From Chitinophaga pinensis (GTDB taxonomy: Bacteria; Bacteroidota; Bacteroidia; UBA7662; JAIXUI01): a DNA stretch of 64,000 nucleotides. Below the pieces are notes generated by a model, which saw only the letters and a list, made by a program, of their open reading frames with translations, was not told where the DNA came from and searched no databases. The DNA lies in NCBI GenBank assembly GCA_943373175.1, contig CALSBM010000002.1:20260-84259 (forward strand), read 5' to 3'. Of the stretch, positions 1 through 55,597 are shown piece by piece. Position 1 is the stretch's first letter. Each line of letters opens with the position of its first letter. The translations under genes and the position numbers were made by a program.

Positions 1-1
1 G

Positions 2-202
2 GCTCAGGCCGTTTCCTACACCACTGGCGTTCCTGCTATGCTTGGCGCCTTAATGATGCTTACTGGAAATTGGATGAAGCCCGGTGTTTATAATGTGGAA
101 GAGTTTAACCCTGACCCATTCCTGAAACTCCTTGGTGAGTATGGTTTGCCTTGGCACGAAAAAGTTAATGTGCCTCTCGCTTTCAATGATTATAACCTTT
201 AA
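2..202 (+). CDS. Saccharopine dehydrogenase family protein (carboxy(nor)spermidine dehydrogenase-like), 3' end only
   Basis: Frame 2 reads AQAVSYTTGVPAMLGALMMLTGNWMKPGVYNVEEFNPDPFLKLLGEYGLPW...NL*, the characteristic C-terminus of this family. The gene is cut by the window edge. Confidence 0.85.
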   Translation, partial: AQAVSYTTGVPAMLGALMMLTGNWMKPGVYNVEEFNPDPFLKLLGEYGLPWHEKVNVPLAFNDYNL

Positions 203-227
203 TTAACCTAATTCCGCATATTTGGGT

Positions 228-4778: not shown

Positions 4779-4918
4779 TATAGCCCTTTCAATGTGTCGA
4801 TAGAATTAAGGAATTAGTCTTTTCAGAGCTGTTAAAATCTTTAAATTAACCTTCATTAAACCATTTATTGAGCTTCTTTATCTTACAATTCAAGAGCAGT
4901 AGCCATAACGGAGTAATC

Positions 4919-38834: not shown

Positions 38835-39386
38835 TTACTTGGTTTTCAATGATTTAGGAGAGATGAAGATGTGCATTCGTTTACCTTCGAGCTTAGGCAT
38901 TTGTTCAAGTTTTCCTATTTCTTCAAGTTTTTGTGCAAACTGAAGCAACAGAAGCTCACCACGCTCTTTAAATACGATTGCTCGTCCTCTGAAATGAACG
39001 TATGCTTTAACTTTTGCTCCCTCAGTGAGGAAAGTCTCAGCATGTTTAAGTTTGAAGTTAAAGTCGTGCTCATCGGTATTAGGGCCGAAGCGAATTTCCT
39101 TCACTACAGTTTTTACCGTATTGGCCTTTATTTCCTTTTCCTTCTTACGTTTTTCGTAAAGAAATTTAGAGAAATCGACTATTCTACAGACCGGAGGAAG
39201 TGCTCTGTCGGTAATGGTGACTAAGTCCAGACCTTGTTGGTCGGCCATAGCAATTGCTTTTTCAAGCGAGTAAACACCATTCTCTACATTTTCGCCTACA
39301 AGGCGTACTTCCGTAGCGGTAATCTGCTCGTTTATGGGCAGTTCGTATTCCGGTTTGACCACACGGGCCGGCTGTCTGGGTTTCAA
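38835..39386 (-). CDS. infC: Translation initiation factor IF-3
   Basis: INEQI...EVRLVG...[12 protein letters not shown]...KEIRFGP...[11 protein letters not shown]. The TTG start overlaps the thrS stop. Confidence 0.96.
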
Positions 39387-41323
39387 TTTCTGTTAATTTC
39401 CCTTTCTATTGAGTCGCGAACATACTGAACAAATTCCGAAATGCTCATAGAGCCGAGGTCGCCCTCGCCCTGCTTTCGCACCGATACTCTTCGTTCACTT
39501 TGCTCTTTTTCACCGATTATAAGCATGAGAGGCACTTTTTGAATCTCCGCATCACGAATTTTCCTTCCGATTTTCTCGTCTCGATGGTCAGTGAAGCCGC
39601 GAATATCGTGATTAATAAGCTCTTTTAAAACTTCATCGGCATAATCCCTAAATTTTTCGCTGATTGAAAGAATAGCATATTGTTCAGGAGCGAGCCAAAG
39701 CGGGAATTTTCCAGCGCAATGCTCAATTAAAACTGCAGTAAATCTCTCAAGCGATCCAAAAGGCGCCCGGTGTATCATCACTGGACGGTGCTTCTGGTTA
39801 TCAGCCCCTGTATATTCCAGTTCAAATCGCTCCGGCAGGTTGTAGTCCACTTGAATGGTGCCCAGTTGCCATTTCCTTCCCAGCGCATCCTTGACCATAA
39901 AATCGAGCTTAGGGCCATAAAATGCAGCTTCTCCCAATTCGGTTGTGGTAGTGAGGTTACGCTCAGCTACAGCGTCAATGATTGCCTGCTCGGCTTTCTC
40001 CCAAGCCTCATCAGTACCAATATACTTCTCTTTATTCTCCGGATCTCTAAGCGAAATCTGAGCGGTGAATTCAGTAAAACCCAGTGCATTGAAAACATAA
40101 AGTACGAGGTCTATCACCTTGATAAACTCGTCTTTCACTTGATCAGGGCGGCAAAATAAATGTGCATCGTCTTGGGTAAAACCCCTGACTCGGGTTAGTC
40201 CATGAAGCTCGCCACTCTGTTCATACCGATAGACAGTTCCAAATTCAGCAAACCTTAGTGGCAAATCGCGGTAAGAACGAGGCCTCGTTTTATATATTTC
40301 GCAATGATGCGGGCAGTTCATGGGTTTCAGAAAATACTCTTCGTTCACATCTGGAGTTCGGATGGGTTGGAAAGAGTCTTTGCCATATTTCGCATAGTGC
40401 CCGGAGGTGACATACAACTCCTTGGAACCAATGTGCGGGGTTACTACCGGCAGGTAACCAGCTTTAAGCTGTGCTTTTTGAAGGAAGGCTATCAGACGTT
40501 CCCGCATCATAGCTCCTTTGGGCAACCATAATGGAAGACCCATACCTACTTTTTCTGAAAATGCGAAAAGCTCAAGTTCTTTACCCAACTTACGATGGTC
40601 ACGTTTTTTAGCTTCTTCCAGTAAATAAAGGTATTCCTTGAGTTCTTTTTTATCGGGAAATGTTACAGCGTAAATGCGTGTTAGCTGTTTGTTTTTCTCA
40701 TTGCCCCTCCAATATGCTCCGGCGGTATTGAGCAACTTTACGGCTTTAATGGACGAAGTGTTCGGGATGTGTGGCCCTTTGCATAAATCCACGAACTGCC
40801 CCTGTTGATAAAAGGTTATATCGCCATCCGTCAGGTCCTGAATCAGTTCAATCTTGTAAGGGTCGCCCTTTTCGGTAAAATAACGAAGAGCATCCGCTTT
40901 GCTCACCTCAGTGCGCTCATAAGTGTTACCCTGAGCAGCGAGTTCAATCATTTTAGCCTCGATTTGCTCGAAGTCATCCGATGAAAAGGAATGATCTCCG
41001 AAATCGATATCGTAGTAAAATCCGCGTTCAATGGATGGGCCAATGCCTAATTTTATTCCGGGATAAAGTTCTTCGAGTGCTTCTGCCATTAGGTGAGCCG
41101 AAGAATGCCAGAAGGTTCTTTTGGCTTCTTCTTGCTCCCATGACAGAAGTTCAAGGGTGCAATCCTCTAAGAGTGGGCGGAGTAAATCTCTTACTTCTCC
41201 ATTGACTTTAGCCGCCAGCATTCGACGAGCTAAACCTTCGCTGATGCTCTTGGCAACATCAAGGGAAGAAGTTCCAGCCGGATATTGGCGTTTTGCGCCA
41301 TCGGGAAGGGTAATTGTGATCAT
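39383..41323 (-). CDS. thrS: Threonine--tRNA ligase
   Basis: TGS domain, [41 protein letters not shown]. Confidence 0.98.
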
Positions 41324-42363
41324 GATTTTATTTCAGAAAGCCTGGCTTTTGCCAGTACATGTTTAGGATCTATTTCGAGTGTTTTTTGAAAGTCAAGTTT
41401 TGCTCTGCTTTTATCCCCTTTAAGTAAAAAGCAATATCCGCGATTAAACAGAGCATCTGCGTATAAATTATTGGCTTCCCAAGAACGGGAAAACCATTGA
41501 ATAGCCTCATCAAGTTGATTTTGTCCTAATGCTATATATCCCAAATTAAACAACGCCAAAGGCTGAGTAGGTTGAAAGCGAATCAGTTCACGGTAAGTGT
41601 CTGCAGCTCGATCCAACTCCCCCTTACTTTGGTACCACATACCAAGGGAGTACCACGCTTCGTCTCGGGTGCTGTCCATTCTTATGGCATTTTGAAAATA
41701 GCGGCTTGCCAGTGTATCCTTTTTCGCCGAATAGTAAAGTCCTAACTGGAGATATGCCTCGTAATACGAAGGGTCGAGTTCGAGGGCAGTTTGAAAACTC
41801 GACATAGATTTAACAGGATTCTTCTGTTCGAGATAAATCATTCCCTTCCAATAATACCCTTCTGCAATAGTTGGATCGAGCTTAAGACCTTGATTGATTG
41901 ATTGAAAAGCTAACTCGTACTTCCGATTATAATACAACCATTCTCCTTTGCGGAGGTGAGCCAATGCAAACTTAGGATTGATCTTAAGTGCTTTATCTAT
42001 AGCATTTTCTGCCTGAACCGGAGCGCCAAGCCGGACATTCAGGGTGTGCAAGGTGGTAAAGTAAGCCGCATTGAGTGTGTCGAAACGAAAAGCTATCTCT
42101 AAATCAGATAGTGCGCGTTTCCACTGACGGACTTTAATTAGCGCAAGCGCGCGGTTATGGTAATTTTCCGGATTCTCCGGGCTTTGATTGATGACCCTAG
42201 TCAGTTCCTTCAACTCATCATTGAGGAAAAGAATGCTATCTCCTGCAAGCGAATCATTAACGCTTACTTCCTTTTGATCTTTAGGCTGGCCGGAATTGCA
42301 TGAGAAAAATCCAACAGCCAGAATGGCAGCAGGTATCCATTTAAAAAGAGAAGTAAACTTCAT
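41320..42363 (-). CDS. Tetratricopeptide-repeat lipoprotein
   Basis: Lipobox-like GFFSC and multiple TPR motifs. The stop overlaps the thrS ATG. Confidence 0.88.
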
Positions 42364-42370
42364 TAGGCGG

Positions 42371-42378
42371 CAAAATTA
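42371..42378 (-). promoter_or_regulatory. Promoter -7 element (TAATTTTG) for the TPR-thrS-infC-rpmI-rplT unit
   Basis: TAnnTTTG on the minus strand, 7 nt before the ATG. Confidence 0.6.
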
Positions 42379-42497
42379 GGGTGATGAAACCGAGCATAAA
42401 AGCGTGAAGGTTAATAATATGCCGGAAAAACTCTCTCGCCAGACTGTTTCAACACTTTAATTTGATGCAAATGCTCATGTTGGAGCGTGTAGGTTTA

Positions 42498-42505
42498 TAG
42501 ATTTG
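42498..42505 (+). promoter_or_regulatory. Promoter -7 element (TAGATTTG) for the TolB-like gene
   Basis: TAnnTTTG located 5 nt before the ATG at 42511. Confidence 0.55.
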
Positions 42506-42510
42506 TGGCC

Positions 42511-43617
42511 ATGAAAAAACACCTAAGGCTCTTATTGATTCCGATAGCCTTTTACGGATTTGCATTTACAACAGGGCCTATCAATAAAACTTCTACTCCC
42601 GCCACTAACGGATCCGACAGTTTGTTGTATCCAGAAGAAAAGCACTTTAGTAATATCCGCCAATTGACCTCTGGAGGCGACAACGCCGAAGCGTACTGGA
42701 GTTTTGATAGCAGGCATTTAATTTTTCAATCCAACAATAAGCAATGGGGGGTGCAATGTGATCAGATTTTCCTCATCAAGGATGAAACGCCCGCCCCTGC
42801 CGATATTGCTCCTTCTATGCTAAGTAGCGGAAAAGGAAGAACCACTTGTGCGTATTTTTTGCCCGGAAACAAATCTGTTTTGTTTGCTACAACCGAAGCA
42901 GGCGGTGCAGCTTGTCCGCCTGAGCCTCAGCGAAGAGCCGATGGCAAATACCTGTGGCCTATTTATCCAAGCTTTGATATTGTAGTAACCAATTTGAAAG
43001 GCAAAGTTCAAAAAAAATTGACCAACCATCCCGGATACGATGCTGAGGCTACTGTATCGCCGGATGGGAAGAAAATAGTTTTTACTTCTGATCGAAGTGG
43101 AGACCTCGAATTATGGACTATGGACATCAATGGGAAAAATCTTCGTCAGGTGACCAAGGGGCTTGGCTATGATGGAGGTGCTTTCTTCTCGCCTGACTCC
43201 AAAAGACTTGTTTTCAGAGCATCACGGCCTACTTCTGATTCTGAAATCAGTGAGTACAAAGCCTTGCTTAAAGAAGGTTTGGTTGCTCCTACTAGTATGG
43301 AAATCTACACTTGTAACTTAGATGGAAGTAAACTAAAACAGGTAACCCGCTTAGGCAAAGCCAATTGGGCTCCTTTCTTCCATCCGTCAGGGAAGAAAAT
43401 TATTTTTTCATCCAATCATAAGAGTAAGCGTGGATTTCAGTTTAACCTGTTCATGATTAATGAAGACGGAACCGGATTGGAGCAAATTTCGTATGACAAG
43501 GTGTTCGATGCGTTTCCTATGTTTTCTCCTAATGGCAAAAAGCTGGTTTTTTCTTCGAACCGTAATAACAAAGGAACAAGAGATACCAACATTTTTGCAG
43601 TTGACTGGAAAGATTAA
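42511..43617 (+). CDS. TolB-like periplasmic beta-propeller (PD40 repeats)
   Basis: Signal peptide and repeated SPDGKKIVFTS / FSPDSKRLVF / FHPSGKKIIFSS / FSPNGKKLVFSS motifs. Confidence 0.88.
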   Translation: MKKHLRLLLIPIAFYGFAFTTGPINKTSTPATNGSDSLLYPEEKHFSNIRQLTSGGDNAEAYWSFDSRHLIFQSNNKQWGVQCDQIFLIKDETPAPADIAPSMLSSGKGRTTCAYFLPGNKSVLFATTEAGGAACPPEPQRRADGKYLWPIYPSFDIVVTNLKGKVQKKLTNHPGYDAEATVSPDGKKIVFTSDRSGDLELWTMDINGKNLRQVTKGLGYDGGAFFSPDSKRLVFRASRPTSDSEISEYKALLKEGLVAPTSMEIYTCNLDGSKLKQVTRLGKANWAPFFHPSGKKIIFSSNHKSKRGFQFNLFMINEDGTGLEQISYDKVFDAFPMFSPNGKKLVFSSNRNNKGTRDTNIFAVDWKD

Positions 43618-43635
43618 AAAAGGCAAAAGAATAAG

Positions 43636-44367
43636 GTGAGTCGAAATCTGGTGGTAATCCCCACCTACAATGAAAAGGGGAACATCGAAGCAATGCTCAG
43701 GAGGATTTTCGCTCTGGGCCACCACTTTCATATCCTGGTGGTGGATGACAATTCGCCGGATGGCACAGCCGACATTGTGAGAACCCTTCAGCAGGATTTC
43801 CATGGAAAGCTTTTTCTTGAAAGCAGAAGCGGCAAACAAGGCTTAGGGACTGCTTACATACACGGATTCAGGTGGGCACTTGCCCGTTCTTATCAACTTA
43901 TCTACGAAATCGACGCAGATTTCAGCCATAATCCGGACGATCTGCTTAAACTTGAACACACTTGCCTTCGGGAGGATGCAGATATAGCCATTGGTTCGAG
44001 GTATGTAACCGGCGTTAATGTGGTTAATTGGCCTATCTCAAGGGTACTACTCTCCTATTTTGCATCAGTTTATGTACGGTTTATCACCAGGATGCCCATT
44101 ATGGATGCTACTGCCGGTTTTATTTGCTATAAAAGACAGGTGTTAGAAAAAATCCGGTTTGATAAAATTCGGTTTGTAGGCTACGCCTTTCAGATAGAAA
44201 TGAAATACACTGCCTGGAAACATGGATTTGCGCTTAAAGAAGTACCGATAATTTTCACCGACCGTACTGTTGGGGAATCAAAAATGTCGAAAGGCATAGT
44301 AAAAGAAGCTGTTCTCGGAGTAATCTCCATGAGGCTACGCACTATCTTCCGTTCCTATAAAAATTAA
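43636..44367 (+). CDS. Polyprenol monophosphomannose synthase (GT2, Ppm1/Dpm1-like)
   Basis: VIPTYNE, VDDNSPDGT, GLGTAY, DADFSHNP, GSRY, DATAGF, GYAFQIEM. Confidence 0.9.
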   Translation: MSRNLVVIPTYNEKGNIEAMLRRIFALGHHFHILVVDDNSPDGTADIVRTLQQDFHGKLFLESRSGKQGLGTAYIHGFRWALARSYQLIYEIDADFSHNPDDLLKLEHTCLREDADIAIGSRYVTGVNVVNWPISRVLLSYFASVYVRFITRMPIMDATAGFICYKRQVLEKIRFDKIRFVGYAFQIEMKYTAWKHGFALKEVPIIFTDRTVGESKMSKGIVKEAVLGVISMRLRTIFRSYKN

Positions 44368-44368
44368 G

Positions 44369-45331
44369 ATGAAAGAACAACTTTGTTTCGGCGTTGATAT
44401 TGGAGGCACCAATACCTCCATTGGACTTGTTAACCGTATAGGCGATATACTCAACGAGGAAGTTATCCCAACACATCGTGAACAGGATGCTAGTTCCTAC
44501 CTGCCACGATTATTCCGCAAGATGGAGGAGATGGGCAAACGTTATCAAGAAGATTACGAGCTGGCCGGCATAGGGATTGGCGCACCAAACGCCAATTTTT
44601 ACCGAGGAACCGTTGAAAACCCTCCTAATTTGAACTGGGGAAAGGTCGTAGAAGTTAGAAAAATCGTTGGTGAACATTTCGGTATTCCCTGCGCCTTAAC
44701 GAACGATGCAAATGCAGCAGCTATTGGAGAAATGACGTTTGGCGCCGCTCAAGGCATGAAGGATTTCATCGTGGTCACCTTGGGTACCGGCTTAGGTAGT
44801 GGAATTGTAGTTAATGGACAATTGGTTTATGGCCACGATGGTTTTGCTGGTGAGTTAGGGCATACCATAGTGAATGTAAACGGGCGGCATTGTGGTTGTG
44901 GCAATAAAGGATGTTTGGAAACTTATGTTTCTGCGACAGGCATCAAACGAACCATTTTCAAACTTTTGGCTGATTATACTTCAGACAGCGAATTGCGAAA
45001 TGTGAGTTTCGAAGAACTTGATGCAAAAATGATTACAGAAGCTGCAATCAGAGGAGATAAAATCGCTCTTGAAGCATTTGAATATACTGGGAGAATTTTG
45101 GGTATGAAGCTGGCAGAAGCTATAGCCATTACCAGCCCTGAAGCTATTTTCCTCTTTGGAGGCTTAGCGAATGCAAGGGATTTGCTTTTCCAACCTACTT
45201 TGCTTCACATGGAAAAATTTCTACTTCCCATTTTTAAGAATAAAGTCAAGCTTCAAATTTCAGGATTGCAGGATAAAAATGCTGCAGTGCTCGGTGCTTC
45301 TGCTTTAATTTGGAACGATCTAATTCGTTAA
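44369..45331 (+). CDS. ROK family sugar kinase (glucokinase-like)
   Basis: GVDIGGT, NDANAAA, TLGTGLGSG, GELGH, CGCGNKGCLE. Confidence 0.93.
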   Translation: MKEQLCFGVDIGGTNTSIGLVNRIGDILNEEVIPTHREQDASSYLPRLFRKMEEMGKRYQEDYELAGIGIGAPNANFYRGTVENPPNLNWGKVVEVRKIVGEHFGIPCALTNDANAAAIGEMTFGAAQGMKDFIVVTLGTGLGSGIVVNGQLVYGHDGFAGELGHTIVNVNGRHCGCGNKGCLETYVSATGIKRTIFKLLADYTSDSELRNVSFEELDAKMITEAAIRGDKIALEAFEYTGRILGMKLAEAIAITSPEAIFLFGGLANARDLLFQPTLLHMEKFLLPIFKNKVKLQISGLQDKNAAVLGASALIWNDLIR

Positions 45332-45379
45332 CGAATTCCTAATTAAAAGAATATCAACTGGTTACTGCCTTTGTTTTTC

Positions 45380-45387
45380 TACCTTTG
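45380..45387 (+). promoter_or_regulatory. Promoter -7 element (TACCTTTG) abutting the start of the HYC/CC/PP ORF
   Basis: TAnnTTTG(C) lies 1 nt before an ATG and 4 nt before an in-frame GTG. Confidence 0.6.
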
Positions 45388-45388
45388 C

Positions 45389-45772
45389 ATGGTGAAAAAG
45401 TTAGTCCGTCTGGTTTTAGTAATGGCGTATCTGCTTGCGGTAAGCGGAGTAAGCATTGTGCGCCATTACTGTGCCGACGAGCTGGCTTCAATAAGTCTGA
45501 ATTCTGATTCAGGCTGTGGCAGTTGTTCTGATACTGAGGATGATTGTTGTAGCACAGAGGTAACTCAATCTGAGGTTAATCACGACCACTCTCCGGCTAC
45601 TTCCGTTTGTTTCAGTCCTTGGTTTCAAGTATTGAAATCAGTACTTCCACCCTCCTACTCGCTTTGGTTAGTTCAAAAAGCTGAACGAGTTACACACTTT
45701 TGGGAGCGAGGTCCTCCCTTATATAAGAACCTCCATCATTTCCTTTCTTGGGTCGCTAACTGGAGAAATTAG
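45389..45772 (+). CDS. HYC_CC_PP-type small membrane/secreted protein with C-terminal RGPP motif
   Basis: Hydrophobic N-terminus, then RHYC, CGSC, DDCC, HDH and ERGPP. The start is ATG 45389 or GTG 45392. Confidence 0.75.
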   Translation: MVKKLVRLVLVMAYLLAVSGVSIVRHYCADELASISLNSDSGCGSCSDTEDDCCSTEVTQSEVNHDHSPATSVCFSPWFQVLKSVLPPSYSLWLVQKAERVTHFWERGPPLYKNLHHFLSWVANWRN

Positions 45773-45862
45773 CCTTGATTATTCTGCACGAAGTTATCGT
45801 GCGATGTCTTGTGCTTACTGTTGAACATGTTCAACCCGTTTTCTCCATTTAAAACCCAACCA

Positions 45863-46408
45863 ATGAAAAATCTTTTTTTGAGCATCATGCTCTTTTTAGC
45901 TGTACTGAGCAGCCAAGCCCAAACCATGACCTCAGCAACCCTTCAAATTTCCGGACTTACCTGTTCTATGTGTCAGAAGTCCACGTATAAAGCACTCTTG
46001 TCACTCCCATTTGTAAAGTCAATTGAAACTGACTTGGCGAAAGCGAAATTTATTCTGCAATTCAAAACGGATGTAGCAGTTGATCCGGACTTAATTTCGA
46101 AAGAAGTTGAAGATGCCGGCTTTGCAATTGCCGGTTTAACCATAGCGGTTTCCATGCCCAAGGTTTCCATTGAAAAGGATCAGCATCTTAAAATAGGTCA
46201 GCGTTGGTATCACTTTGTAAATTCAGCCGGTAAAACGGTTGAAGGAGTTGTTAATCTTCAATTCATTGACAAACACTTTGTTGAAGATTCTCAATTCTTG
46301 GTTTATTCTAACAAGACCGATTATGGTTGCTATAAAACAGGAAAAATGGCTGCTTGCTGCCATTCCGGGGATCAACCTTCGGGTAGAATTTATCACGTTA
46401 CGCTCTGA
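45863..46408 (+). CDS. Exported heavy-metal-associated (HMA) domain protein
   Basis: Signal peptide, GLTCSMC metal motif, HMA fold and C-terminal GCYKTG...ACCH...YHVTL. Confidence 0.88.
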   Translation: MKNLFLSIMLFLAVLSSQAQTMTSATLQISGLTCSMCQKSTYKALLSLPFVKSIETDLAKAKFILQFKTDVAVDPDLISKEVEDAGFAIAGLTIAVSMPKVSIEKDQHLKIGQRWYHFVNSAGKTVEGVVNLQFIDKHFVEDSQFLVYSNKTDYGCYKTGKMAACCHSGDQPSGRIYHVTL

Positions 46409-47244
46409 TGCGCTATTTACGCATGTTGTTCCTGTCGATTTTTTTATTGACAGGAACAAACGGCTGGTGTCAGGAGCTTTATGTAGCCACTGACCCAGCT
46501 TCAAATATGCCAGCCAAGTCATTAGGTTTCCGCCTCAATTACAAGGGTATGGAGTCTCCTTCGCGAATTATGGGACGTTATCAGGCTGAAGTTAGAGCAG
46601 GACTTACCAAGAAACTGATGGTGATGGGCGCTTTTAGCTTTTCCGATTACTATCAATTGAAAACACAGTTTGAGGGAGTGCAATTAGGGATGCAATACCG
46701 ACTTTTTAGCAAAGACCGGGTACATCGTCATTTACGTGGTGCACTTTGGGCACGTTACAGCCATTCGCTGAATCCGCAGCATTTGAGCGACCTTAATTTT
46801 TCAGGAGATCATAGTGGAATAAGTTTGGGTGGAACTTTAACTCAGCTTATCCATAAAGTGGCCTTTTCAACCACTATTGGATGGAGCAATGTCTATTACA
46901 CACAGCGTGAATCCGGATTTGACCAAGGGAATACCATCACAGGTAGCCTTTCGATTGGTGGATTAGCTTATCCTTTGAAATACAGTTCCAGCTTTAAGAA
47001 AACTAATGTCAATCTCTACGCTGAAATGCTGGGAGGCTGGAACAGTGGCTATGAAGGAGTTATTGGCCTGCATCCTATTCAAAACGGGCACTGGTTAGAT
47101 TTACAGCCGGCAATTCAATTCATTTTTAATTCGCAAACACGCCTTGATTTAGCCTATCGGTTTGAATTAGATGCCAATGTTAGGCGCATGGGACCGAATA
47201 TGGTGATGTTTCGTTTGGAACATTTGCTTTTTAAGGCTTGGTAA
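46408..47244 (+). CDS. Hypothetical outer-membrane beta-barrel protein
   Basis: Signal peptide, alternating aromatic/hydrophobic strands and a C-terminal aromatic residue. The start overlaps the HMA gene stop. Confidence 0.65.
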   Translation: MRYLRMLFLSIFLLTGTNGWCQELYVATDPASNMPAKSLGFRLNYKGMESPSRIMGRYQAEVRAGLTKKLMVMGAFSFSDYYQLKTQFEGVQLGMQYRLFSKDRVHRHLRGALWARYSHSLNPQHLSDLNFSGDHSGISLGGTLTQLIHKVAFSTTIGWSNVYYTQRESGFDQGNTITGSLSIGGLAYPLKYSSSFKKTNVNLYAEMLGGWNSGYEGVIGLHPIQNGHWLDLQPAIQFIFNSQTRLDLAYRFELDANVRRMGPNMVMFRLEHLLFKAW

Positions 47245-47262
47245 TAATAAACTGATCTATCT

Positions 47263-47300
47263 CCGCCTGTGGATTTTGGTGAGAAGCTATTCACAGGCGG
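47263..47300. other. Stem-loop without a U tract
   Basis: CCGCCTGTGGAT...ATTCACAGGCGG just after the barrel gene stop. Confidence 0.55.
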
Positions 47301-47431
47301 CTGTTCTGAAAAATCAACCTTTAAATTTTTTAGTAGGAAATAGATAAGTAAACTCCGATCAAAAGTGAGTATGCGTTCTTTTCTGAACCAAGATTACTCT
47401 TTAGTCAATAAATTTTTCGCTTTGCTTTGAG

Positions 47432-48565
47432 TTAAAGCCAAATGAGCTTTTGATGTTCTAATATGGAGGCTTTAAGTATTGACCTTTTCAGCTTACCCGC
47501 TTCTGAAAGAGGAAAAGCCGGAATTGAGGCAATTGCAACAGGACGATTCCGGCTAATGGTTTGTGAAAGCCAACCTTTCCATAACGCTTCATCGGGAAGA
47601 GGTTCCTGAAAAACCCACACCGGGCGTTCTCCCCATTTTTCGTGAGGAACTCCAACAATCGCGAAGGTGATTTGAGTATCCTGTATCAAGTTACTCAAAT
47701 CATTCTCTAACTGCTCTGGTAGTAGTTTTAGCCCACCGCTGTTGATGAGGTTGTCGAGACGCCCCAGAACCTTAAACCTGTCTTGATTTGAAACATCCAA
47801 TTCTACACTGTCATTGGTTGGAAGGTAGAAGTGCTCATTTTCTGTCAGTCCGGTCCAGTAGGCAGGTAGGCTGATGGTTAAGCTGGTATCTGCTTCTTCC
47901 TTTGCCTTATAGGGCGATATCAGCGTAAAATGCGAATCCTCTAACGTCTTTAATGCTACAAAACTGAGGCTTTCGGTCATCCCGTACGTTTGCAGCATTG
48001 CACAAGGCAACACAGCATTCAATTGCTGACCCAGCGACTCGGAAACATTTGCTCCACCTAAAAGTATTAGACTGAAGCAATTTCCTGCTTCGTTGATGCT
48101 TCCGCTGTTCAAACAAGCAACTGCCTGCGCGGGCAAAAGTGAAAGCACTACATTTCGCTCTTGTTTTGCCTCTTCCGAAAGCTCTAACAGGGGATCAAGC
48201 CGGTTAGTTAACAGACTGATGTTCCAACCTGCAAGCAGTGCTCGAATCACTAACATGAAACCACCGGCTCGATCAACAGGCAGAGCCAGCCAGGCATGAT
48301 CGATTGGATAAGAATTAAGCGCTAAGATTTGCGCGTTTGCAGCTTCTTCAACCCAATTTCTAGAAAAGCTAATCGACTTAGGCGAACCGGTTGAGCCAGA
48401 TGTTTGTAAGGAAAAGGCGCGGCATGCCGGATTAAACCATTGCTGTATGAGCGACCAAAAAGCGCGCTCATGGTCTGAAAGAACGTCAGTTTCGAGTTGT
48501 TCTGTTGCAAAAGCCAGAGCCTGTCCGGGAAGTAGGCTTCGTCCCATAAAGAACAATGGCTTCAT
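47432..48565 (-). CDS. AMP-binding enzyme, O-succinylbenzoate-CoA ligase (MenE)-like
   Basis: TSGSTGSPK, YGMTES, GRLDNLINSGGLK, GKLKR. The short form is typical of Bacteroidota MenE. Confidence 0.75.
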   Translation of the reverse strand: MKPLFFMGRSLLPGQALAFATEQLETDVLSDHERAFWSLIQQWFNPACRAFSLQTSGSTGSPKSISFSRNWVEEAANAQILALNSYPIDHAWLALPVDRAGGFMLVIRALLAGWNISLLTNRLDPLLELSEEAKQERNVVLSLLPAQAVACLNSGSINEAGNCFSLILLGGANVSESLGQQLNAVLPCAMLQTYGMTESLSFVALKTLEDSHFTLISPYKAKEEADTSLTISLPAYWTGLTENEHFYLPTNDSVELDVSNQDRFKVLGRLDNLINSGGLKLLPEQLENDLSNLIQDTQITFAIVGVPHEKWGERPVWVFQEPLPDEALWKGWLSQTISRNRPVAIASIPAFPLSEAGKLKRSILKASILEHQKLIWL

Positions 48566-48567
48566 GG

Positions 48568-49641
48568 CTATCCTTCTACGCCTTCTTTAAGTCTTTCTGC
48601 GTTTTCTGCGAGTTGTAGTGCATCAAGGAACCCTTGTAAATCCCCATCAAGTACTTGGGAGAGGTTGTACAAGGTTACACCTATTCGGTGATCGGTAACG
48701 CGGGACTGCGGGAAGTTGTAAGTGCGGATTTTAGCAGAACGGTCTCCGGAAGAAACCATGGTTTTCCGCCTTCTTGCGACTTCTTCTTGTCGTTTATTGA
48801 GTTCTTGCTCGTACAGGCGGGTACGCAACATTTGCATAGCACGTTCGCGGTTGCCAATTTGAGAGCGTTCAACCTGGCAGGTAACTACAATTCCAGAGGG
48901 TTTGTGAGTCAACATCACTTTAGTTTCTACCTTATTGACATTCTGGCCGCCGGCACCACCAGAGCGAGCAGTTTGCAATTCAATATCAGCCGGGTTAATA
49001 GTGACTTCTAACTCATCGGCTTCCGGAAGAACTACTATAGAAGCTGCTGAAGTATGCACACGCCCCTGAGTTTCCGTATCTGGTACACGTTGAACGCGAT
49101 GTACTCCAGACTCGTATTTTAGGATACCATAAACGTCTTCACCAATAATGTTCAGCACTACTTCTTTATAACCACCAGCGGTACCTTCATTTTCATCCAC
49201 CAATTCAACCTTCCAACCTTTGTTTTCGCAATACCGCATGTACATACGGTAGAGGTCACCGGCAAAAAGTGCGGCTTCGTCGCCTCCGGTACCAGCACGG
49301 ATTTCGAGAATGGCGTTGCGGCTGTCTTCAGGGTCCTGTGGAATGAGCATAAACCGGATGGCTTCTTCCATAGGTTCTTTCTGTGGAATAAGTTCATCGA
49401 GTTCGGCCTTGGCCATTTCTATCATTTCAGGATCTTTTTCTTCCTGCAACATCCGCTGACTGTTGATAATGCTATCGGTCAGTTTGCGGTAAGTATGATA
49501 GGCGTCCACAATCTTTTCCAGATCCTTGTATTCCTTATTAAGGCGCGCATATCGGCGCATATCCTCGAACACATCGGGTTCGAGGAGCATTTGGCCTACC
49601 TCTTCCCAGCGTTGTTTTATTGCTTCTAATTTATCCAGCAT
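48568..49641 (-). CDS. prfA: Peptide chain release factor 1
   Basis: [17 protein letters not shown] and RTYNFPQ. The ATG at 49641 overlaps the upstream stop (TGATG). Confidence 0.97.
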
Positions 49642-50414
49642 CAGTTTGAGCTCAGCGGCCACAAAGTTACTCTTCCCTGGCGGAGAAAGTATATCCCACT
49701 GGAAGAAGGTGCAATAGATTCAGGTATTTGGCTGGCATCCAAGGGCCACTCTCTTGCTTTAAGCGACTTCATGTTCCATTGAATGAGTTTTTCAGAAGTT
49801 AGCATCCACAAATCATGGGCATTTAGTGCGATGTCTGTAACGCCTTCCATAGGGATTTTCCGAATAAATGCCCCGTAAAAATCGAAGACCCAAACTCCTT
49901 GCTGATAAATGAGCAGGTAAAGTTTTCTTTGGTGTTCGATTAAATCAAATGCTTGAAATCCGGACGGAAAATGCTGGTTTAACCTGGGCCCTTCCCAATT
50001 TTGCATGCCTTCTGCTTCGTATTTACGAAAACATAAGGTACGGTCGTCGAAGAACCAAATCCTGTTATCGGCACTTCTGCAAAACAAAGGATTTGATGCA
50101 CTGCGGGCTTCTTCAATTACCCTCTGACTAACCGGGTAAAGGTTGTTATCGAATTCGGCAAGGGTTGAAGTTTCCGGGTAAAACGCAAGGGGCTTTAATG
50201 GGTTAAGCAAGTCAAAGGAAGAAATTCTACCCAAGTTTCGGTCTCGCCAATTCGCGATAACTTTCCCCGACGTATCTAACCGGATGATTTCGTTATCGGG
50301 TTTAATTTCATACAGATTTCCCTGCATATCTGTGTAAAGCCGGGTTTGCGATGATGCTTGCTTGCAATTGAAACAAAACCACAGAGAAAAAAGTAAGCGC
50401 AGTATTAACTTCAA
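49641..50414 (-). CDS. Hypothetical exported protein (beta-propeller-like)
   Basis: Signal peptide and [14 protein letters not shown]...FDNNL...[10 protein letters not shown]. It overlaps both neighbours. Confidence 0.7.
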
Positions 50415-51700
50415 GGGAGGATAATTTTTCCGATTGACTGTTTACAACGAATCAGGTACATGCCTGGTGTAAGACCCCAATCGGATTGGTTAAAGTAGTT
50501 TTTCACTACAAGCTGAGTTTTGAGCCTTCTTCCTTGAAGATCTACTATTTCTATTGTTTCATTAAGCCAATTATCCGGGAAATGCCATGATATACTGCCG
50601 TCTGCGCCCAACCGGCAACTGATAAATGGCTGATCGATTCTTGGGTTGTGAGTTGAAACCTGAGGTTGGAAAACTTGCTTCAACAATCCCCATAAGGCGT
50701 TATCAAAAGAAGAAAGAGCGAGCATGGATTGCCCTGAAGATTCACCCAAACGAACCACGACCAAGTTCATGGAAGGAACCACATAGATTTTCTGATCGTT
50801 TTTTCCTAAAGCTGCCATCATATCCGGTGGTGCGTTAGGGACTAACTGGCCTGAATAAAGTATTTGGGTAAGAGGAAGCATGTGGTTAGGCTGCCCGTTG
50901 AGCCACCAGAGATACCCATACGAGCGATTTAAGGTTTGTGAAGGCGTGGTCATCTGCCGGAAATAGGCAGTATCGCCTAAAATAGCTTGGCCATTCCAGT
51001 TTCCTTGAGCCAGATTCAACAATCCGAAACGGGCAATATCCCTTAACCTGCTGTAATATATACCATCATACCAAAGGCCAGACATGCCAATTCTGAACTT
51101 CACCCATTGGTTGGTTAATTGTGCTAAGTTGAGTGGAGAACAAGAGTCCAAAACCGACTGTAGTAGCAGGTATGGAGCGTTATGATACGCCCAACGAGTT
51201 CCTGCCGGTGCTTTATAAATCAAGCAGGAATCTACTGTGCAGTTATCATCTGGAACACCGTCGTCGAGACCGGTGGTCATGGTAAGCTGGTGCCGAATGG
51301 TGATGCTGTCTTCTCTAGGGAGCGAAAGGTTAGTCCAGCCTTGACCAAGGTACTGAGACGTTTTTTGTTGAATGCTTAATAGCCCCTTTTCCTGGGCGAT
51401 GCCAATTAACATGGCTGTCAGGGTTTTGCCGGCAGAAGCCCAATACCAAAGACTGTCTTTGGTAAATGTTCCATAATAACGCTCCCAGGCAATTTTGCCA
51501 TCTTTTAGAATCAGAAAGCCTTTAGTGTTTTTTGAAGTTAGATATCGGTCAACGGTATCTAAGCACGTCCAACACCAATTAACTGATGAAGGATTGACAG
51601 TATCCCACTGATTTCCAGTTATGGGTGGGAAGTAAAGAGCCTGTGAGAAGCCCTTATTACAACCGAATACAAGGAGTAAAAACAGAATAACCTTCTTCAT
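50411..51700 (-). CDS. Serine hydrolase (beta-lactamase/AmpC-like family) with T9SS-like C-terminal domain
   Basis: SAGK (SxxK), YHN (YxN), YGYLWW and C-terminal IVDLQGR...PGMYLIR. Confidence 0.88.
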   Translation of the reverse strand: MKKVILFLLLVFGCNKGFSQALYFPPITGNQWDTVNPSSVNWCWTCLDTVDRYLTSKNTKGFLILKDGKIAWERYYGTFTKDSLWYWASAGKTLTAMLIGIAQEKGLLSIQQKTSQYLGQGWTNLSLPREDSITIRHQLTMTTGLDDGVPDDNCTVDSCLIYKAPAGTRWAYHNAPYLLLQSVLDSCSPLNLAQLTNQWVKFRIGMSGLWYDGIYYSRLRDIARFGLLNLAQGNWNGQAILGDTAYFRQMTTPSQTLNRSYGYLWWLNGQPNHMLPLTQILYSGQLVPNAPPDMMAALGKNDQKIYVVPSMNLVVVRLGESSGQSMLALSSFDNALWGLLKQVFQPQVSTHNPRIDQPFISCRLGADGSISWHFPDNWLNETIEIVDLQGRRLKTQLVVKNYFNQSDWGLTPGMYLIRCKQSIGKIILP

Positions 51701-51772
51701 ACCACTGTGACATTTCTCAAATGATAAAGTTCAACAAGTGTTGGATGAAAAGTTTGTAATTTTTTGAAATAC

Positions 51773-52411
51773 CTATACTAATTTTTGACGTATTGCTTTA
51801 GATACCGCTTCAGAGACTGAGTGAACATTGAGTTTTTCGTAAATTTTCTTGATATGGCTTCTAACAGTATCAATGCTGATGAGTAATTCGGCTGCAATCA
51901 TTTTATAGGAAAAGCCATCTACCAACAATTTTAGCAATTGCCTTTCTCTCGCAGTTAACCCGTATTGTGGCGTTGGCGACTGCTGTTCTGAAAAAAACTT
52001 AAGTACTTTCTGAGCTATTGCTGCACTCATCGGAACTTCGCCGTTTCTAATATCGACTATTGCCGATAAAAGCCTTGTCGGGGTTGTTTTCTTGAGCAGA
52101 TAACCATTAGCGCCGCGCTTCAATGCTTCAAAAAGATGGTCATTATCATCAAAAACGGTGTACATGATAACGGGAAGCTCAGGTTTGATGGATTTCACCT
52201 TAGTGAGCGTATCTAACCCATTAAGTACTGGCATGTCAATGTCCATGAGGATGACATCAGGAAACAGAGACCCTATAGCCTTTTCAACATGTTCACCATT
52301 TTCAAACATTCCTACGAGGTTAAAGTCTTCACTTAGAGAGAAGAGCTGACTAAGGCTCAAACGCAAGTCAGGATTATCCTCGTAAACTAATAGCCTGAGT
52401 GGTTGATCCAT
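51773..52411 (-). CDS. NarL/FixJ-family response regulator (REC + LuxR HTH)
   Basis: DVILMDIDMP, GANGYLLK, LTARERQLLKLLVDGFSYKMIA...TVRSHIKKIYEKL. Confidence 0.95.
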   Translation of the reverse strand: MDQPLRLLVYEDNPDLRLSLSQLFSLSEDFNLVGMFENGEHVEKAIGSLFPDVILMDIDMPVLNGLDTLTKVKSIKPELPVIMYTVFDDNDHLFEALKRGANGYLLKKTTPTRLLSAIVDIRNGEVPMSAAIAQKVLKFFSEQQSPTPQYGLTARERQLLKLLVDGFSYKMIAAELLISIDTVRSHIKKIYEKLNVHSVSEAVSKAIRQKLV

Positions 52412-52446
52412 TATTCAAATGACCGCCAATTTTTTTCAGGATACAA

Positions 52447-52462
52447 TCACATTTTTATGTGA
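52447..52462. promoter_or_regulatory. Palindrome TCACAT-N4-ATGTGA between the kinase and regulator genes
   Basis: Exact 6-bp inverted repeat 35 bp upstream of the regulator start. Confidence 0.5.
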
Positions 52463-52471
52463 ATATCCCCA

Positions 52472-55462
52472 TCAACTTGGCAGTTTAAATCTTAATTTCC
52501 AATGAGTTCCCAATCCGGGTTTAGAATGAAGTTCACATTCTGCTTGAATTTGTGCAGCACGTTGATGAATGTTGCTCACACCGTTTCCTCCTTTTCTTAC
52601 TTTTTGCAAATCGAATCCGCAGCCATTGTCTGATAAGTCAATCGCAATAGATTTCGAATCTACCCTGAGGGCGATACTCATTTCAGTGGCAGCAGAATGT
52701 TTAGCAGCATTGTTTACAATTTCCTTAAAGAGGAGGTATAAATGCTGACGAGTATCCATGGGTATCGCAGCTTGTTGTAGGTCGCCGGTAACCTTAAAAG
52801 TGAGTTCAATGCCCATAGCTTCCAACGTCTGAGCTGCAAATTCCCTCATTCTTGCCACAAGTTCCGGGAGTGCATCGTTTGTGGGCTTAATGGACCAGAC
52901 GATGTCAGAAACCCGTTCCATCATTTCTTGGGTGCTGTTTCCGATTCTATTTAGCAACTCTGAGGCATTTTCCGGCTTTCTTTTCGCCAGTTCTGTTAGA
53001 ATATTCACACTCGATAACGTTGCTCCAAGGTCATCGTGCAAATCAGAGGCTATCCGCTGGCGGACTTTTTCCAGCTCCTTTTTTCTCTTCATCTTGATTC
53101 TCCAGTAAGAATAAACTATGCTTCCAAGAAACAACGTTGATCCTAACAGGAACCACCAGGTAGTATAGAAAGGTGCTTTAACTTCAATCGTAATGAAACT
53201 TGATTTTCCCTTTGGCTCACTTTCGTATTGACCTGCAAACTCTAACTGATACTTGCCTGGAGGCAAGTATGATAACGTGATGGTTCGGCCTTCCGTGATG
53301 CTTTGCCACTCGTTGCTCTTGTTAACAAAGCGATAGGAATACCTGATTTTAGTAGCATCAATTAAAACTCCGGAAGTAAGATCTAGTTCTAAAGTATTCG
53401 CGCTAGTCTGAAGTGTATAATTAGCATCAATTGGAGCATTTATTTCTTTACCATTCATTCTAATTGCAGCAATAGAGGCAACAGGTGCTGATTTCTTTTT
53501 AAAGAATTCTGGAATTGAAAGAGTGTAAATAAATTTAGGGTCAATAAAAACTAATTCATTTTTATCGATAATGGCATTCGACGTATTTTCTTCGTCTTCA
53601 ATGCCATCGAATACGTTTAATTGTTTTAAAGCATCCAGCTTCTGTTTGAGGTACACGAGAAACCCGGTGTTGGTTTGGATCCAAACATTGAGAAAAGAAT
53701 CAGGGAAAATATTAATAACACGATTGTGGGGAACTTCCTGGTTATTAACAAGATGTATCCACTTTTTAGAATGGCCATCAAGAAACCACACGCCCGATTC
53801 TTCCGTACCAACCCATAAATTACCATTTGGCATTTCCCGAACTGCCGATAACGTTGGCATGTCATAAGAAGATCGGTTGTAATCTCCCGGAAAACGAATT
53901 GACTTCCACGAAAGCGTATTCGTATCGAGTTGACCCAATCCGTTATGATGTATATTGAACCAAATGGCCCTCGTTCCAACTCCTCCTCCAGAAAAATTTA
54001 TTGATGGAAGGTTCAACTCTTTGGCGGTGCGAAATACTAGACTATCTTTTCCCCAATGATAATACATCACTTGGTGTCCTACAGTGCCTAAAACGTAGCG
54101 CATAGAATCAAGTTGAAGAACTTGAAAAGATTTTAATTGCGGATAGCGGCATTCAGGTTCATGAAATACGACCGTATCTGCATTCGAGTACTTGACTTTT
54201 AACTTAGCAATACCCATATATCCCGTAAGCAGTACCTCATTTTCTTTTATTCTAAAGCAGTTAAACACCGCTCCATCTGTTATGCGATAATGGTTGTTAA
54301 GAAGCCAACATTTCCCATTATTACGGGAGATGGCATAAACACCGCTATAACCATTTCCAAGTAACCAATCCGAGTTCAGCACCATCATCTGATAATAGTC
54401 CGGTATTTCTGGGAATTTAGAGATATAATGAATTGGAATTCGTTTAAGAAAATGCCGTTTAGTGGAAATCACGGATAATCCTTTGTCTGTAGATACCCAA
54501 AGAAGTCCTTGATTATCCACCAATAACCCATAATTCTCTATAAAAAATGGAATGCGGTATTTAGGATCAGCCGATTTAAGTATTGTAGCCGTCCAATCTT
54601 CAGGATTAACAATCAAAACGCCATTTCCAAAAGAAGTAATGGCAATTCTACCATCGGTTAATGCGGCAAATTGAAAGGAAACAAATTTTTCGTTCAAACT
54701 TCCATTCAAACACTTCAATTTAATTTTTTCAATTTGCTTAGTAAATGGATTCCACACAATTAATCCATTAGCCCAACCACCGGAAAGTATTCGTCCATCC
54801 TTTAATTGTGCGATAGGTCCTTGAACTGGTTCAACTGGGTTAAGATATATTTTATCGACTTTTAATGTTAATTTATTTAACTGATAAAGACCATAAAAAG
54901 CGCTGAAATAATGGTAATCGCCTGAATTGGTAATCAGGAATCGATTAGCAATAACATCCGATATTAATTTTACAACTTTTGGCTTTCGGGAATCATATAA
55001 ATAAACCCCCATACCACCGCTAATAAATACTCGGAATTTATCAAGCGGCTTCACTGAAAAAACTCTTTTTATGTTTTCACTATTAAGCGGCTTAGGTAGC
55101 AGTATATGCCGCCATTTTAAGGTGTAAACATTTACCATCGAAAGCCCTCCTCTATGGCCCACGAGCATGATGGAATCTCCCCAAGGACTCAGTGCTTCAA
55201 TATGATTATTCCAAACAGGGCCTTCCGGTTGAAGATTTCGGAATACTCTAAATCGATACCCGTCGTAACAGTTTAAACCACTTTTGGTTCCTGCCCAAAT
55301 TATTCCTCTTTGATCCTGAGCTATACAAAATACTGCGTTATGGGAAAGCCCGTCTAACTTGGTAAAGTGTCTGATGCGTTGGAGGTTGTCCTCCAGAACA
55401 CCAGCACAGACAAGAGGGGGCAAGGCCATGCACAGCAACAGGAAGCACCAATGTCCTCTCAT
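52472..55462 (-). CDS. Sensor histidine kinase: beta-propeller (Reg_prop) + Y_Y_Y + TM + HisKA_3 + HATPase
   Basis: DGLSHNAVFCIAQDQRGIIWAGT, LPPGKYQL, PFYTTWWF, RIASDLHDDLG, DNGCGF, GNGVSNI, GLGT. Confidence 0.93.
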   Translation of the reverse strand: MRGHWCFLLLCMALPPLVCAGVLEDNLQRIRHFTKLDGLSHNAVFCIAQDQRGIIWAGTKSGLNCYDGYRFRVFRNLQPEGPVWNNHIEALSPWGDSIMLVGHRGGLSMVNVYTLKWRHILLPKPLNSENIKRVFSVKPLDKFRVFISGGMGVYLYDSRKPKVVKLISDVIANRFLITNSGDYHYFSAFYGLYQLNKLTLKVDKIYLNPVEPVQGPIAQLKDGRILSGGWANGLIVWNPFTKQIEKIKLKCLNGSLNEKFVSFQFAALTDGRIAITSFGNGVLIVNPEDWTATILKSADPKYRIPFFIENYGLLVDNQGLLWVSTDKGLSVISTKRHFLKRIPIHYISKFPEIPDYYQMMVLNSDWLLGNGYSGVYAISRNNGKCWLLNNHYRITDGAVFNCFRIKENEVLLTGYMGIAKLKVKYSNADTVVFHEPECRYPQLKSFQVLQLDSMRYVLGTVGHQVMYYHWGKDSLVFRTAKELNLPSINFSGGGVGTRAIWFNIHHNGLGQLDTNTLSWKSIRFPGDYNRSSYDMPTLSAVREMPNGNLWVGTEESGVWFLDGHSKKWIHLVNNQEVPHNRVINIFPDSFLNVWIQTNTGFLVYLKQKLDALKQLNVFDGIEDEENTSNAIIDKNELVFIDPKFIYTLSIPEFFKKKSAPVASIAAIRMNGKEINAPIDANYTLQTSANTLELDLTSGVLIDATKIRYSYRFVNKSNEWQSITEGRTITLSYLPPGKYQLEFAGQYESEPKGKSSFITIEVKAPFYTTWWFLLGSTLFLGSIVYSYWRIKMKRKKELEKVRQRIASDLHDDLGATLSSVNILTELAKRKPENASELLNRIGNSTQEMMERVSDIVWSIKPTNDALPELVARMREFAAQTLEAMGIELTFKVTGDLQQAAIPMDTRQHLYLLFKEIVNNAAKHSAATEMSIALRVDSKSIAIDLSDNGCGFDLQKVRKGGNGVSNIHQRAAQIQAECELHSKPGLGTHWKLRFKLPS

Positions 55463-55597
55463 TGTGGACAATTTAATTGACAATTTTTAAAGCAACATCA
55501 GACTTCTTACAGAACTTTTGATTTACAGTTTTTTGACATCTTTAAACACTGATAAACAAGTACATACATCACAATAACTTCGACAAAAATTAAAACT

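Follow-up and report, generated by a model that had tools for sequence, protein, structure and literature searches.

Only two proteins, both of them proteobacterial members of the DUF2946 family, have so far been shown to control metal operons as nascent exported peptides. CutF of Rhodobacter capsulatus (PMC9973294, bioRxiv 10.1101/2025.02.05.636593) is a small exported protein that heads a metal operon, carries a periplasmic Cys motif and a C-terminal proline motif, is followed by structured RNA before the next gene, and acts only in cis. Its PPP motif lies a few residues from the stop codon, and the ribosome that stalls there melts a stem-loop over the Shine-Dalgarno (SD) sequence (bioRxiv 10.1101/2025.02.05.636593). 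CruR (Bp2923) of Bordetella pertussis (PMC9426467) has an export signal and a CXXC motif that precedes an R-x-P-P core at a conserved distance of 45 ± 1-2 amino acids (aa); the addition of five residues to this ruler breaks regulation. Here we describe an open reading frame (ORF) of the HYC_CC_PP / DUF8199 family that resembles these leaders and is located at 45389-45772 on the forward strand of a 64-kb stretch of DNA from Chitinophaga pinensis (64,000 nucleotides (nt) of contig CALSBM010000002.1, hereafter the window). What is new is that the last codons of this ORF pair with the 18 nt that end 5 nt before the start codon of the next gene, which encodes an HMA-domain protein, and that this pairing encloses both hairpins of the spacer between the two genes. 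The features of the locus are listed below; AF2 stands for AlphaFold2.

45380 to 45387, + strand: Bacteroidota-type -7 box TACCTTTG (TAnnTTTG), 1 nt before ATG 45389 and 4 nt before GTG 45392
45389 to 45772, + strand: HYC_CC_PP / DUF8199 ORF, 127 aa plus stop, alternative start GTG 45392
45389 to 45448, + strand: predicted export signal, aa 1-20, with K3, K4 and R7, hydrophobic residues 8-18 and G20 (at least 90% conserved)
45464 to 45550, + strand: Cys/His cluster H26-Y-C28, C43-G-S-C46 and C53-C54; three-stranded sheet in the AF2 model (aa 21-61)
45551 to 45706, + strand: linker, aa 55-106, variable in sequence and constant in length
45707 to 45718, + strand: R107-G-P-P110 (CGA GGT CCT CCC), candidate ribosome pause or arrest site, invariant in five orthologues
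45719 to 45769, + strand: tail of 17 aa after PP (LYKNLHHFLSWVANWRN), with F118, L119, S120 and W125 invariant in orthologues; the final codons supply the 5' arm of the closing helix
45750 to 45768, + strand: 5' arm of the closing helix, inside the ORF, with the core UGGAGAAA at 45761-45768 (Trp-Arg-Asn codons); 15 bp with 45840-45857
45783 to 45804, + strand: hairpin 1, core GCACGA/UCGUGC, extended stem 45771-45815
45820 to 45835, + strand: hairpin 2, GUUGAA-CAUG-UUCAAC
45840 to 45857, + strand: 3' arm of the closing helix, core UUUCUCCA...ACCC, ending 5 nt before the HMA AUG at 45863
45863 to 46408, + strand: exported HMA-domain protein, 181 aa, with GLTCSMC (PF00403, E 8e-7) and a C-terminal extension of ~90 aa
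46408 to 47244, + strand: outer-membrane beta-barrel, 278 aa, 12 strands in the AF2 model; start codon and HMA stop codon share 1 nt

The general plan of the locus is that of CutF: a small protein predicted to be exported, with a Cys motif and a proline motif, stands at the head of a metal operon and is followed by structured RNA. The ORF differs from CutF in that PP is 17 codons from the stop codon, no SD sequence is present, and the helix is anchored on the last codons, so that a stalled ribosome would leave the helix closed. With CruR it shares the CXXC motif, an R-x-P-P core at a conserved distance, a predicted export signal, the position as first gene and the long intergenic region that follows. 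Additionally, CruR heads an outer-membrane uptake operon (TonB receptor), as do most of the DUF8199 loci that have the helix. In contrast to the ORF, CruR carries its RAPP 3 residues from the C-terminus, has a spacing of 45 aa instead of about 55-60, delivers its output through Rho-dependent termination, is proteobacterial, and has neither the HYC nor the CC motif. Of the traits that mark DUF2946, the ORF has the CXXC and a fixed Cys-to-proline distance (54.7 aa, 45 in CruR) but no proline motif in its last few residues. An RGPP core is also shared with the RAPP-like 'RQH' peptides (ApdA, ApdP, SecM and the Streptomyces RAPP/RGPP upstream ORFs (uORFs); PMC10987492, PMC10951233, PMC12992588), which are likewise small secretory or membrane proteins with the core near the C-terminus and a co-directional downstream gene.

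The published CutF-like filter (PP in the last 15 residues) would reject the ORF and most of DUF8199, in which the tail after PP measures 15.7 ± 2.1 aa (mode 16) and is 15 aa or less in about a third of members. In the CutF-like list of Öztürk et al. (PMC9973294) 19% of the entries are from Bacteroidota, and Bacteroidota CutF-like proteins have thus already been flagged in bulk; those clusters may correspond to DUF8199. Fujiwara et al., who surveyed RAPP-like peptides, did not find RAPP/RGPP uORFs related to Cu in Bacteroidota, and we attribute this to the mostly non-Arg motifs of DUF8199, the RGPP clade of the window being the exception.

The ORF ends with a TAG at 45770-45772 and is followed by a 90-nt spacer. 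When the spacer is folded alone, two hairpins form. If the fold is extended by the final ~20 nt of the ORF, a long outer helix, made by the end of the ORF with its stop codon and the bases that precede the HMA start codon, closes around both hairpins in all five orthologues. The whole element has a minimum free energy of -32 kcal/mol in the window (z -3.4), and z ranges from -3.7 to -5.7 in the orthologous loci L001, L005, L006 and L008. The duplex between the ORF end and the region before the HMA start reaches -20.3 kcal/mol in the window vs -9.9 kcal/mol for shuffles (z -4.9). The five orthologues arrive at the outer helix by three different sequence solutions (UAAAUAGGA/UCCUAUUUA in L001 and UAGGAGU/ACUCCU in L006, for example). 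Hairpin 1 is found in all five orthologous spacers with differing sequences, and the position of hairpin 2 is occupied in orthologues by GGUUGA/UCAACC, GCUGAU/AUCAGC and GCUGC/GCAGC. Because the pairing is kept as the sequences differ, helix and hairpins have the signature of an RNA structure rather than of a DNA operator.

The same design is seen in Flavobacterium, where UGAUUUUAAUG from the stop codon pairs with CAUUAAAAUCA before the AUG of a TonB-receptor gene and two variable hairpins lie inside, and it recurs in an Ignavibacteriota-type group. Pairing of the ORF end with the pre-start region beats dinucleotide shuffles (z < -2) in 34 of 70 loci. When 25 sequence-distinct representatives were compared, cognate arms had a mean energy of -9.2 kcal/mol vs -6.4 kcal/mol for non-cognate arms (permutation p≈5e-5); that is, the closing helix co-varies between clades. 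These results come from per-sequence folds, duplex energies against shuffles and the cognate/non-cognate swap test, used in place of MAFFT plus RNAalifold, in which the hairpins were misaligned and the consensus energies weak. A search of Rfam returned no family at E<=1 for the spacer of the window or for that of a Flavobacterium locus.

The strength of the helix varies with the genes downstream. Ahead of TonB receptors, small HMA genes and HMA genes of the window's type the helix is strong (median z -2.9 to -3.7), and it is absent before genes of the type IX secretion system (T9SS)/oxidase, HMBD/ATPase and HMA-DUF3347 kinds (median z about 0), both sets of medians being uncorrected for phylogeny. 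Loci with a strong helix include L062-L092 (Flavobacterium), L042, L044, L057, L061, L073 and the window itself at 45750-45857; L023, L033-L035, L018-L021, L039 and L047 are comparison loci without one. The presence of the helix may separate uptake-type from detoxification-type operons.

A preliminary description of this DNA, made from the letters alone, had reported two inverted repeats after the ORF, and both are present (45785-45803, TGCACGA/TCGTGCG, and 45820-45835, a perfect 16-nt palindrome). We considered that these hairpins might shield the HMA start as in CutF and rejected the idea, since in every fold neither the start codon nor any of the 5 nt preceding it is paired. The outer helix, not the hairpins, covers positions -6 to -23 of the HMA gene, and this feature was absent from the preliminary description. 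The last ~27 nt before the HMA start (45836-45862 in the window, and also in L001, L005, L006 and L008) are C-rich and almost free of G (in the window, 11 C and a single G). The composition is rut-like and could let Rho load when the stretch is untranslated, or it may equally stem from pairing with G-rich Trp/Arg codons.

The ORF protein, MVKKLVRLVLVMAYLLAVSGVSIVRHYCADELASISLNSDSGCGSCSDTEDDCCSTEVTQSEVNHDHS...FWERGPPLYKNLHHFLSWVANWRN, has 127 aa (MVKKLV...WRN) when read from the first ATG at 45389; in the ORF listing of the window the frame runs from a TTG at 45371 to 45772 (133 aa). The alternative start GTG 45392 is aligned with ATG in all four orthologues. The ORF is the only DUF8199 member within the window. 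It scores 39.2 bits against the NCBIfam model NF047658 (HYC_CC_PP; curated cut-off 28), with aa 4-115 of 127 covered, and a match to Pfam PF26622 (DUF8199) is precomputed for the exact protein and its relatives. With a score above the cut-off and all three name-giving motifs in place, the family call of the preliminary description was correct. The motifs that it named (the hydrophobic N-terminus, HYC, CGSC, CC, H65-D-H67 and RGPP) can all be read in the translation, and its coordinates for RGPP are exact. Its start at 45380 is not that of the ORF, which is itself real; 45380 is the first base of the TAnnTTTG promoter box.

Members of the family have HYC after a hydrophobic N-terminal helix, CC ~29 aa further on, PP ~55 aa after CC, and ~16 aa between PP and the C-terminus. 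The ORF follows this layout with H26-Y-C28, C53-C54 and P109-P110 (spacings 26, 54 and 17). A profile search of 1.84 billion representatives gave 985 clusters (50% identity) at E<=1e-3, almost all of them 120-135 aa long. The names HYC_CC_PP, DUF8199, PF26622 and NF047658 were not mentioned in the literature searched, and the family is a sequence family without an assigned function. When 131 diverse members were aligned, C28, C54 and P110 were invariant and G20, H26, C43, C46, C53 and P109 were conserved in at least 90%. C43-G-S-C46 is a CXXC-type motif; its two Cys positions are conserved at that level, yet many members have C-x-C or CC. No consensus residue occurs in this alignment between position ~68 and PP.

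The AF2 model of the ORF has an overall predicted local distance difference test (pLDDT) score of 77.7 (above 87 for aa 1-40) and consists of an N-terminal helix, a three-stranded Cys-bearing sheet and three short helices; the PP region is its lowest-confidence part, and a search of the PDB gave no relative (best E 0.85). The N-terminal helix (aa 2-19, pLDDT above 90) holds an 11-residue hydrophobic core after a positively charged N-terminus, which makes aa 1-20 a candidate cleavable export signal or N-in anchor.

The distance from CC to PP is 54.7 ± 1.9 aa in 231 distinct sequences, despite a linker that lacks sequence conservation. PP is conserved in at least 90% of members, and the proline pair with its fixed distance from the Cys residues supports part of the preliminary interpretation. 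In the window RGPP stands in the context [FV][WF][ED]RGPP, which is kept in the four orthologues. Among 134 diverse representatives, position -2 before PP is occupied by H in 29, N in 16, Y in 12, P in 11 and R in 4, and position -1 by A in 30, S in 26 and G in 19 (75 of 134 together). The commonest tetrapeptides are HAPP (15), NAPP (10) and HGPP (6), with RGPP in 2; PPP occurs in 38 representatives and an R/H-A/G-PP core in 23. The family-wide element, judged from these alignments, is therefore PP with a small residue before it, of which RGPP is the form found in one clade.

No arrest core is known to be more robust or to tolerate more contexts than RGPP, which is refractory to EF-P and depleted from proteomes (PMC12992588). 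The same study determined that seven of seven small Streptomyces proteins with a C-terminal RAPP/RGPP arrest translation. HAPP and HGPP are documented arrest cores of the 'RQH' class as well (PMC10987492) and occur in 21 of the 134 representatives, whereas most DUF8199 members have non-R motifs (NAPP, xSPP, PPP) that are at most candidate arrest cores. The literature premises of the preliminary description, RGPP as an arrest core (PMC12992588) and CruR and CutF as metal-responsive leader ORFs (PMC9426467, PMC9973294), are thus sound. A local GGGAG/CUCCC hairpin over the RGPP codons of the window was also considered as an element and was rejected, as it is not conserved in orthologues.

The genomic context of the family was examined in 80 further loci from Bacteroidota and Ignavibacteriota, which were found with a 27-sequence sub-alignment and are biased to HYCGGK-type members, and in three long contigs. 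The next gene is co-directional in about 76 of the 80 loci and is typically separated from the DUF8199 gene by 75-125 nt, with later operon gaps of -4 to 40 nt. A TonB-dependent receptor, HMA and VTT/DedA genes follow in 28 Flavobacterium loci. Other downstream clusters contain HMA with a TonB receptor; HMBD with a P-type ATPase; HMA-DUF3347; RND with an outer-membrane factor; T9SS-tailed proteins with a multicopper oxidase; or a YncE-like propeller, AraC, HMA-MauE, a methyltransferase, HMBD, a P-type ATPase and RND. The HMA and barrel cluster of the window is also found in Pedobacter and Mucilaginibacter. The placement ahead of metal-handling genes first noticed in the window therefore holds for the family, which heads metal operons of many classes, and metal handling, uptake and detoxification alike, is the sole common denominator of the downstream genes. 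Such a mixture fits a regulator better than a dedicated partner protein. The same pattern, with leaders upstream of many metal gene classes, has been described for CutF-like (PMC9973294) and CruR-like leaders. In L009-L011 (positions 1-7000) the DUF8199-headed metal clusters adjoin tyrosine integrases, type I/II restriction-modification genes and excisionase-like helix-turn-helix genes, which suggests that they are mobile metal-resistance islands.

In the window the preliminary description had assigned an HMA gene and a beta-barrel gene downstream, and both are confirmed, by the match to PF00403 and by the 12-stranded AF2 barrel. A convergent gene follows the barrel gene, and the operon unit therefore has three genes: leader ORF, HMA and barrel. 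The four orthologues (58-67% identity) keep RGPP and this three-gene order, with a ROK kinase gene before the DUF8199, HMA and barrel genes, and the HMA start codon is conserved among them. The C-terminal extension of the HMA protein (46130-46405) is without a family match and ends in ...MAACCHSGDQPSGRIYHVTL; the CCH motif at its end may be a second metal site. The barrel model (pLDDT 86.3) has Foldseek matches to FapF and to a COG4313 outer-membrane channel, with template modelling (TM) scores of 0.5-0.6. The barrel family has 269 homologues and is without a Pfam model. A link between the barrel and metal handling comes from one homologue of 424 aa (P0288), in which the barrel is fused to an HMA domain; its record is labelled as the fungus Russula earlei and is probably a bacterial contamination of that assembly. 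The surrounding genes (39383-55483) are housekeeping or unrelated: thrS, a TPR lipoprotein, a PD40/Tricorn-like protein, a GT2 glycosyltransferase, the ROK kinase, an AMP-binding ligase, prfA, a beta-lactamase-family protein, and a LuxR-type response regulator with a large hybrid sensor kinase. Neither this interval nor the operon contains a gene for a metalloregulator.

The promoter geometry of the locus recurs elsewhere. Orthologues L005 and L006 and 26 Flavobacterium loci have the TAnnTTTG box at exactly the same distance of 4 nt from the start codon, and the two clades with this spacing share only about 25% protein identity. The -7 box is 18-21 nt upstream of the start in other clades (21 nt in Chitinophagales-type loci). 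A box 4 nt before the start codon implies a leaderless mRNA, and the geometry thus suggests that the mRNAs of these loci are leaderless or nearly so, which makes the 'probably leaderless' ORF of the preliminary description plausible. In Flavobacterium a 148-aa ORF is located 45 nt upstream, and the box still stands just before the DUF8199 start; the gene would therefore appear to start its own transcript despite the ORF that precedes it.

Taken together, the anatomy of the ORF, its conservation in the family, the ruler spacing, the operon position, the co-varying helix and the promoter geometry point to a leader that acts in cis. We consider it somewhat probable that the ORF is a translation-coupled, metal-sensing leader of the three-gene operon, in which pausing at PP gates the ribosomes that reach and open the helix. 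The pausing or arrest at PP, its dependence on metal, the metal concerned and the sign of regulation are all inferred. The mRNA would be made from the promoter that abuts the start codon, and would hence be leaderless, and the nascent chain would be exported via its N-terminal signal. When a ribosome is at R107-G-P-P110, the ~55 residues from the peptidyl-transferase centre to CC would about match the exit tunnel plus the translocon, and the Cys/His cluster would at that moment have just emerged on the periplasmic side. Metal binding or disulfides at the cluster might then alter the pull on the chain and with it the dwell time at PP, as in CutF and CruR.

If a ribosome is halted when Pro109 occupies the P site and Pro110 the A site, it would cover the mRNA to about 45730, 20 nt short of the helix, which would stay closed. 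The hairpins are out of reach of such a ribosome as well, since 17 codons separate PP from the stop. The closed helix would sequester positions -6 to -23 of the HMA gene and repress it. Initiation in Bacteroidota is set by low mRNA structure and by the nucleotides upstream of the start, not by SD sequences (PMC6847099), and for this reason a helix over that region should be repressive. Ribosomes that pass PP would read the 17-codon tail to the stop and, as the 5' arm is inside the ORF, would have to unzip the helix, thereby freeing an unstructured A/C-rich initiation region; the barrel gene would then be translated after HMA through the start/stop overlap. A rationale for the conserved ~16-codon tail would be that it sets the pause site back from the helix. 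Further polarity could come from Rho or RNases, which might act on the ~140 nt of RNA that are left untranslated when a ribosome is arrested. Within this scheme, we regard a true arrest at RGPP as evenly balanced. A wider version is doubtful: DUF8199 as a whole would comprise leaderless metal-sensing arrest ORFs throughout Bacteroidota and Ignavibacteriota, with a set-back pause that keeps the helix shut and with helix presence possibly setting the sign of regulation.

Several observations weigh against the cis-acting leader. The conservation of Arg/Gly before PP that the preliminary description expected does not extend beyond the window's clade; by the refuting condition set there, the claim specific to RGPP fails for the family as a whole. 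Roughly a quarter to half of clades do not have the closing helix, mainly those that head oxidase/ATPase operons. The moderately confident AF2 fold is compatible with a stable protein. The tail past PP is conserved in sequence (FLSW..W here and PLYxxxxVFRI in another clade), which an arrest peptide alone leaves unexplained; constraint from the RNA helix may account for this in part. A few members (L030, L035, L058) are without PP and still have the tail. Such members, for example HPLPYKPKAPIY and NHLPSYKAKIPIY, keep a C-terminal P-[IL]-Y...[FL]-x-I tail, so that in some lineages the tail is constrained at least as much as PP. The sequence was found solely in lake and freshwater DNA metagenome runs, with no RNA run among them. 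Finally, hmmscan against Pfam gave no match to DUF2946 (PF11162) for the ORF at E<=0.1 or for the 131 diverse members at E<=1. On sequence grounds DUF8199 would be an analogue or a very distant relative of DUF2946, not a member. The earlier proposal of a Bacteroidota counterpart to CruR is supported in part: it holds for the head of a metal operon, the PP motif and the fixed ruler, and does not hold for the distance to the stop (17 codons, 3 in CruR) or for membership in DUF2946.

Many of these points fit a stable protein that binds metal through its Cys and His residues, either anchored in the membrane or periplasmic (a metallochaperone or transporter accessory, for example), in which PP would be a structural turn and the helix would serve ordinary coupling or mRNA stability. 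The conserved residues comprise five Cys and one His, placed by the model on a small beta-sheet (pLDDT 87-93), the tail beyond PP is conserved, some members dispense with PP, and the neighbouring genes encode metal-binding proteins with which metal might be exchanged. On the other hand, the downstream partners come from unrelated families with opposite functions (uptake receptors as opposed to efflux pumps and oxidases), the 50-aa linker is fixed in length without conserved sequence, the gene is nearly always first and followed by an unusually long structured spacer, and the model has no structural relative in the PDB. We see this main alternative as possible and are inclined against it. It is compatible with the leader, since a regulatory role could exist alongside that of a stable protein.

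A second alternative, which we think unlikely, is that the spacer hairpins form a transcription attenuator or terminator, intrinsic or Rho-dependent as for CruR, with translation of the ORF controlling read-through. CruR does act through Rho (PMC9426467), the 3' part of the spacer is C-rich, G-poor and rut-like in all orthologues, and hairpin 1 was picked up in the window by a scan for terminator-like structures. As an intrinsic terminator, hairpin 1 was rejected because its T-rich tail is not conserved; neither hairpin is followed by a T-tract in orthologues. Moreover, the C-richness is needed anyway for pairing with the G-rich Trp/Arg codons, and the conserved co-varying element is the long-range helix, which stops 5 nt short of the start codon and so directs attention to the initiation region. 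The third alternative, in which the 16-nt palindrome GTTGAACATGTTCAAC would be the operator of a dimeric metalloregulator on an internal HMA promoter and the ORF would be irrelevant to regulation, has in its favour that the palindrome is perfect and is overlapped by a near -7 box (TACTGTTG, 45816-45823), but it was rejected as very improbable since orthologues keep the pairing and not the sequence (GGTTGA/TCAACC, GCTGAT/ATCAGC, GCTGC/GCAGC) and the operon has no regulator gene.

The concept of a metal-sensing leader ORF is already published for CutF and CruR; the family described here is different and uncharacterised, and its wiring differs in the leaderless start, the set-back pause, the stop-anchored helix and the absence of an SD sequence. 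The finding is testable and broad, yet not unexpected to specialists, and everything mechanistic in it is inferred. If the ORF is indeed a cis-acting leader, the principle would reach a second, sequence-unrelated family of about a thousand clusters at 50% identity. The coupling would then be built differently, through that start, pause and helix, in a phylum whose ribosomes ignore SD sequences. A putative promoter, sensor, ruler, pause site and RNA switch would be combined in a compact cis-element of 480 nt. Lastly, a function would be given to a named uncharacterised family that stands ahead of TonB receptors, P-type ATPases, RND pumps and multicopper oxidases, of which many are carried by mobile elements.

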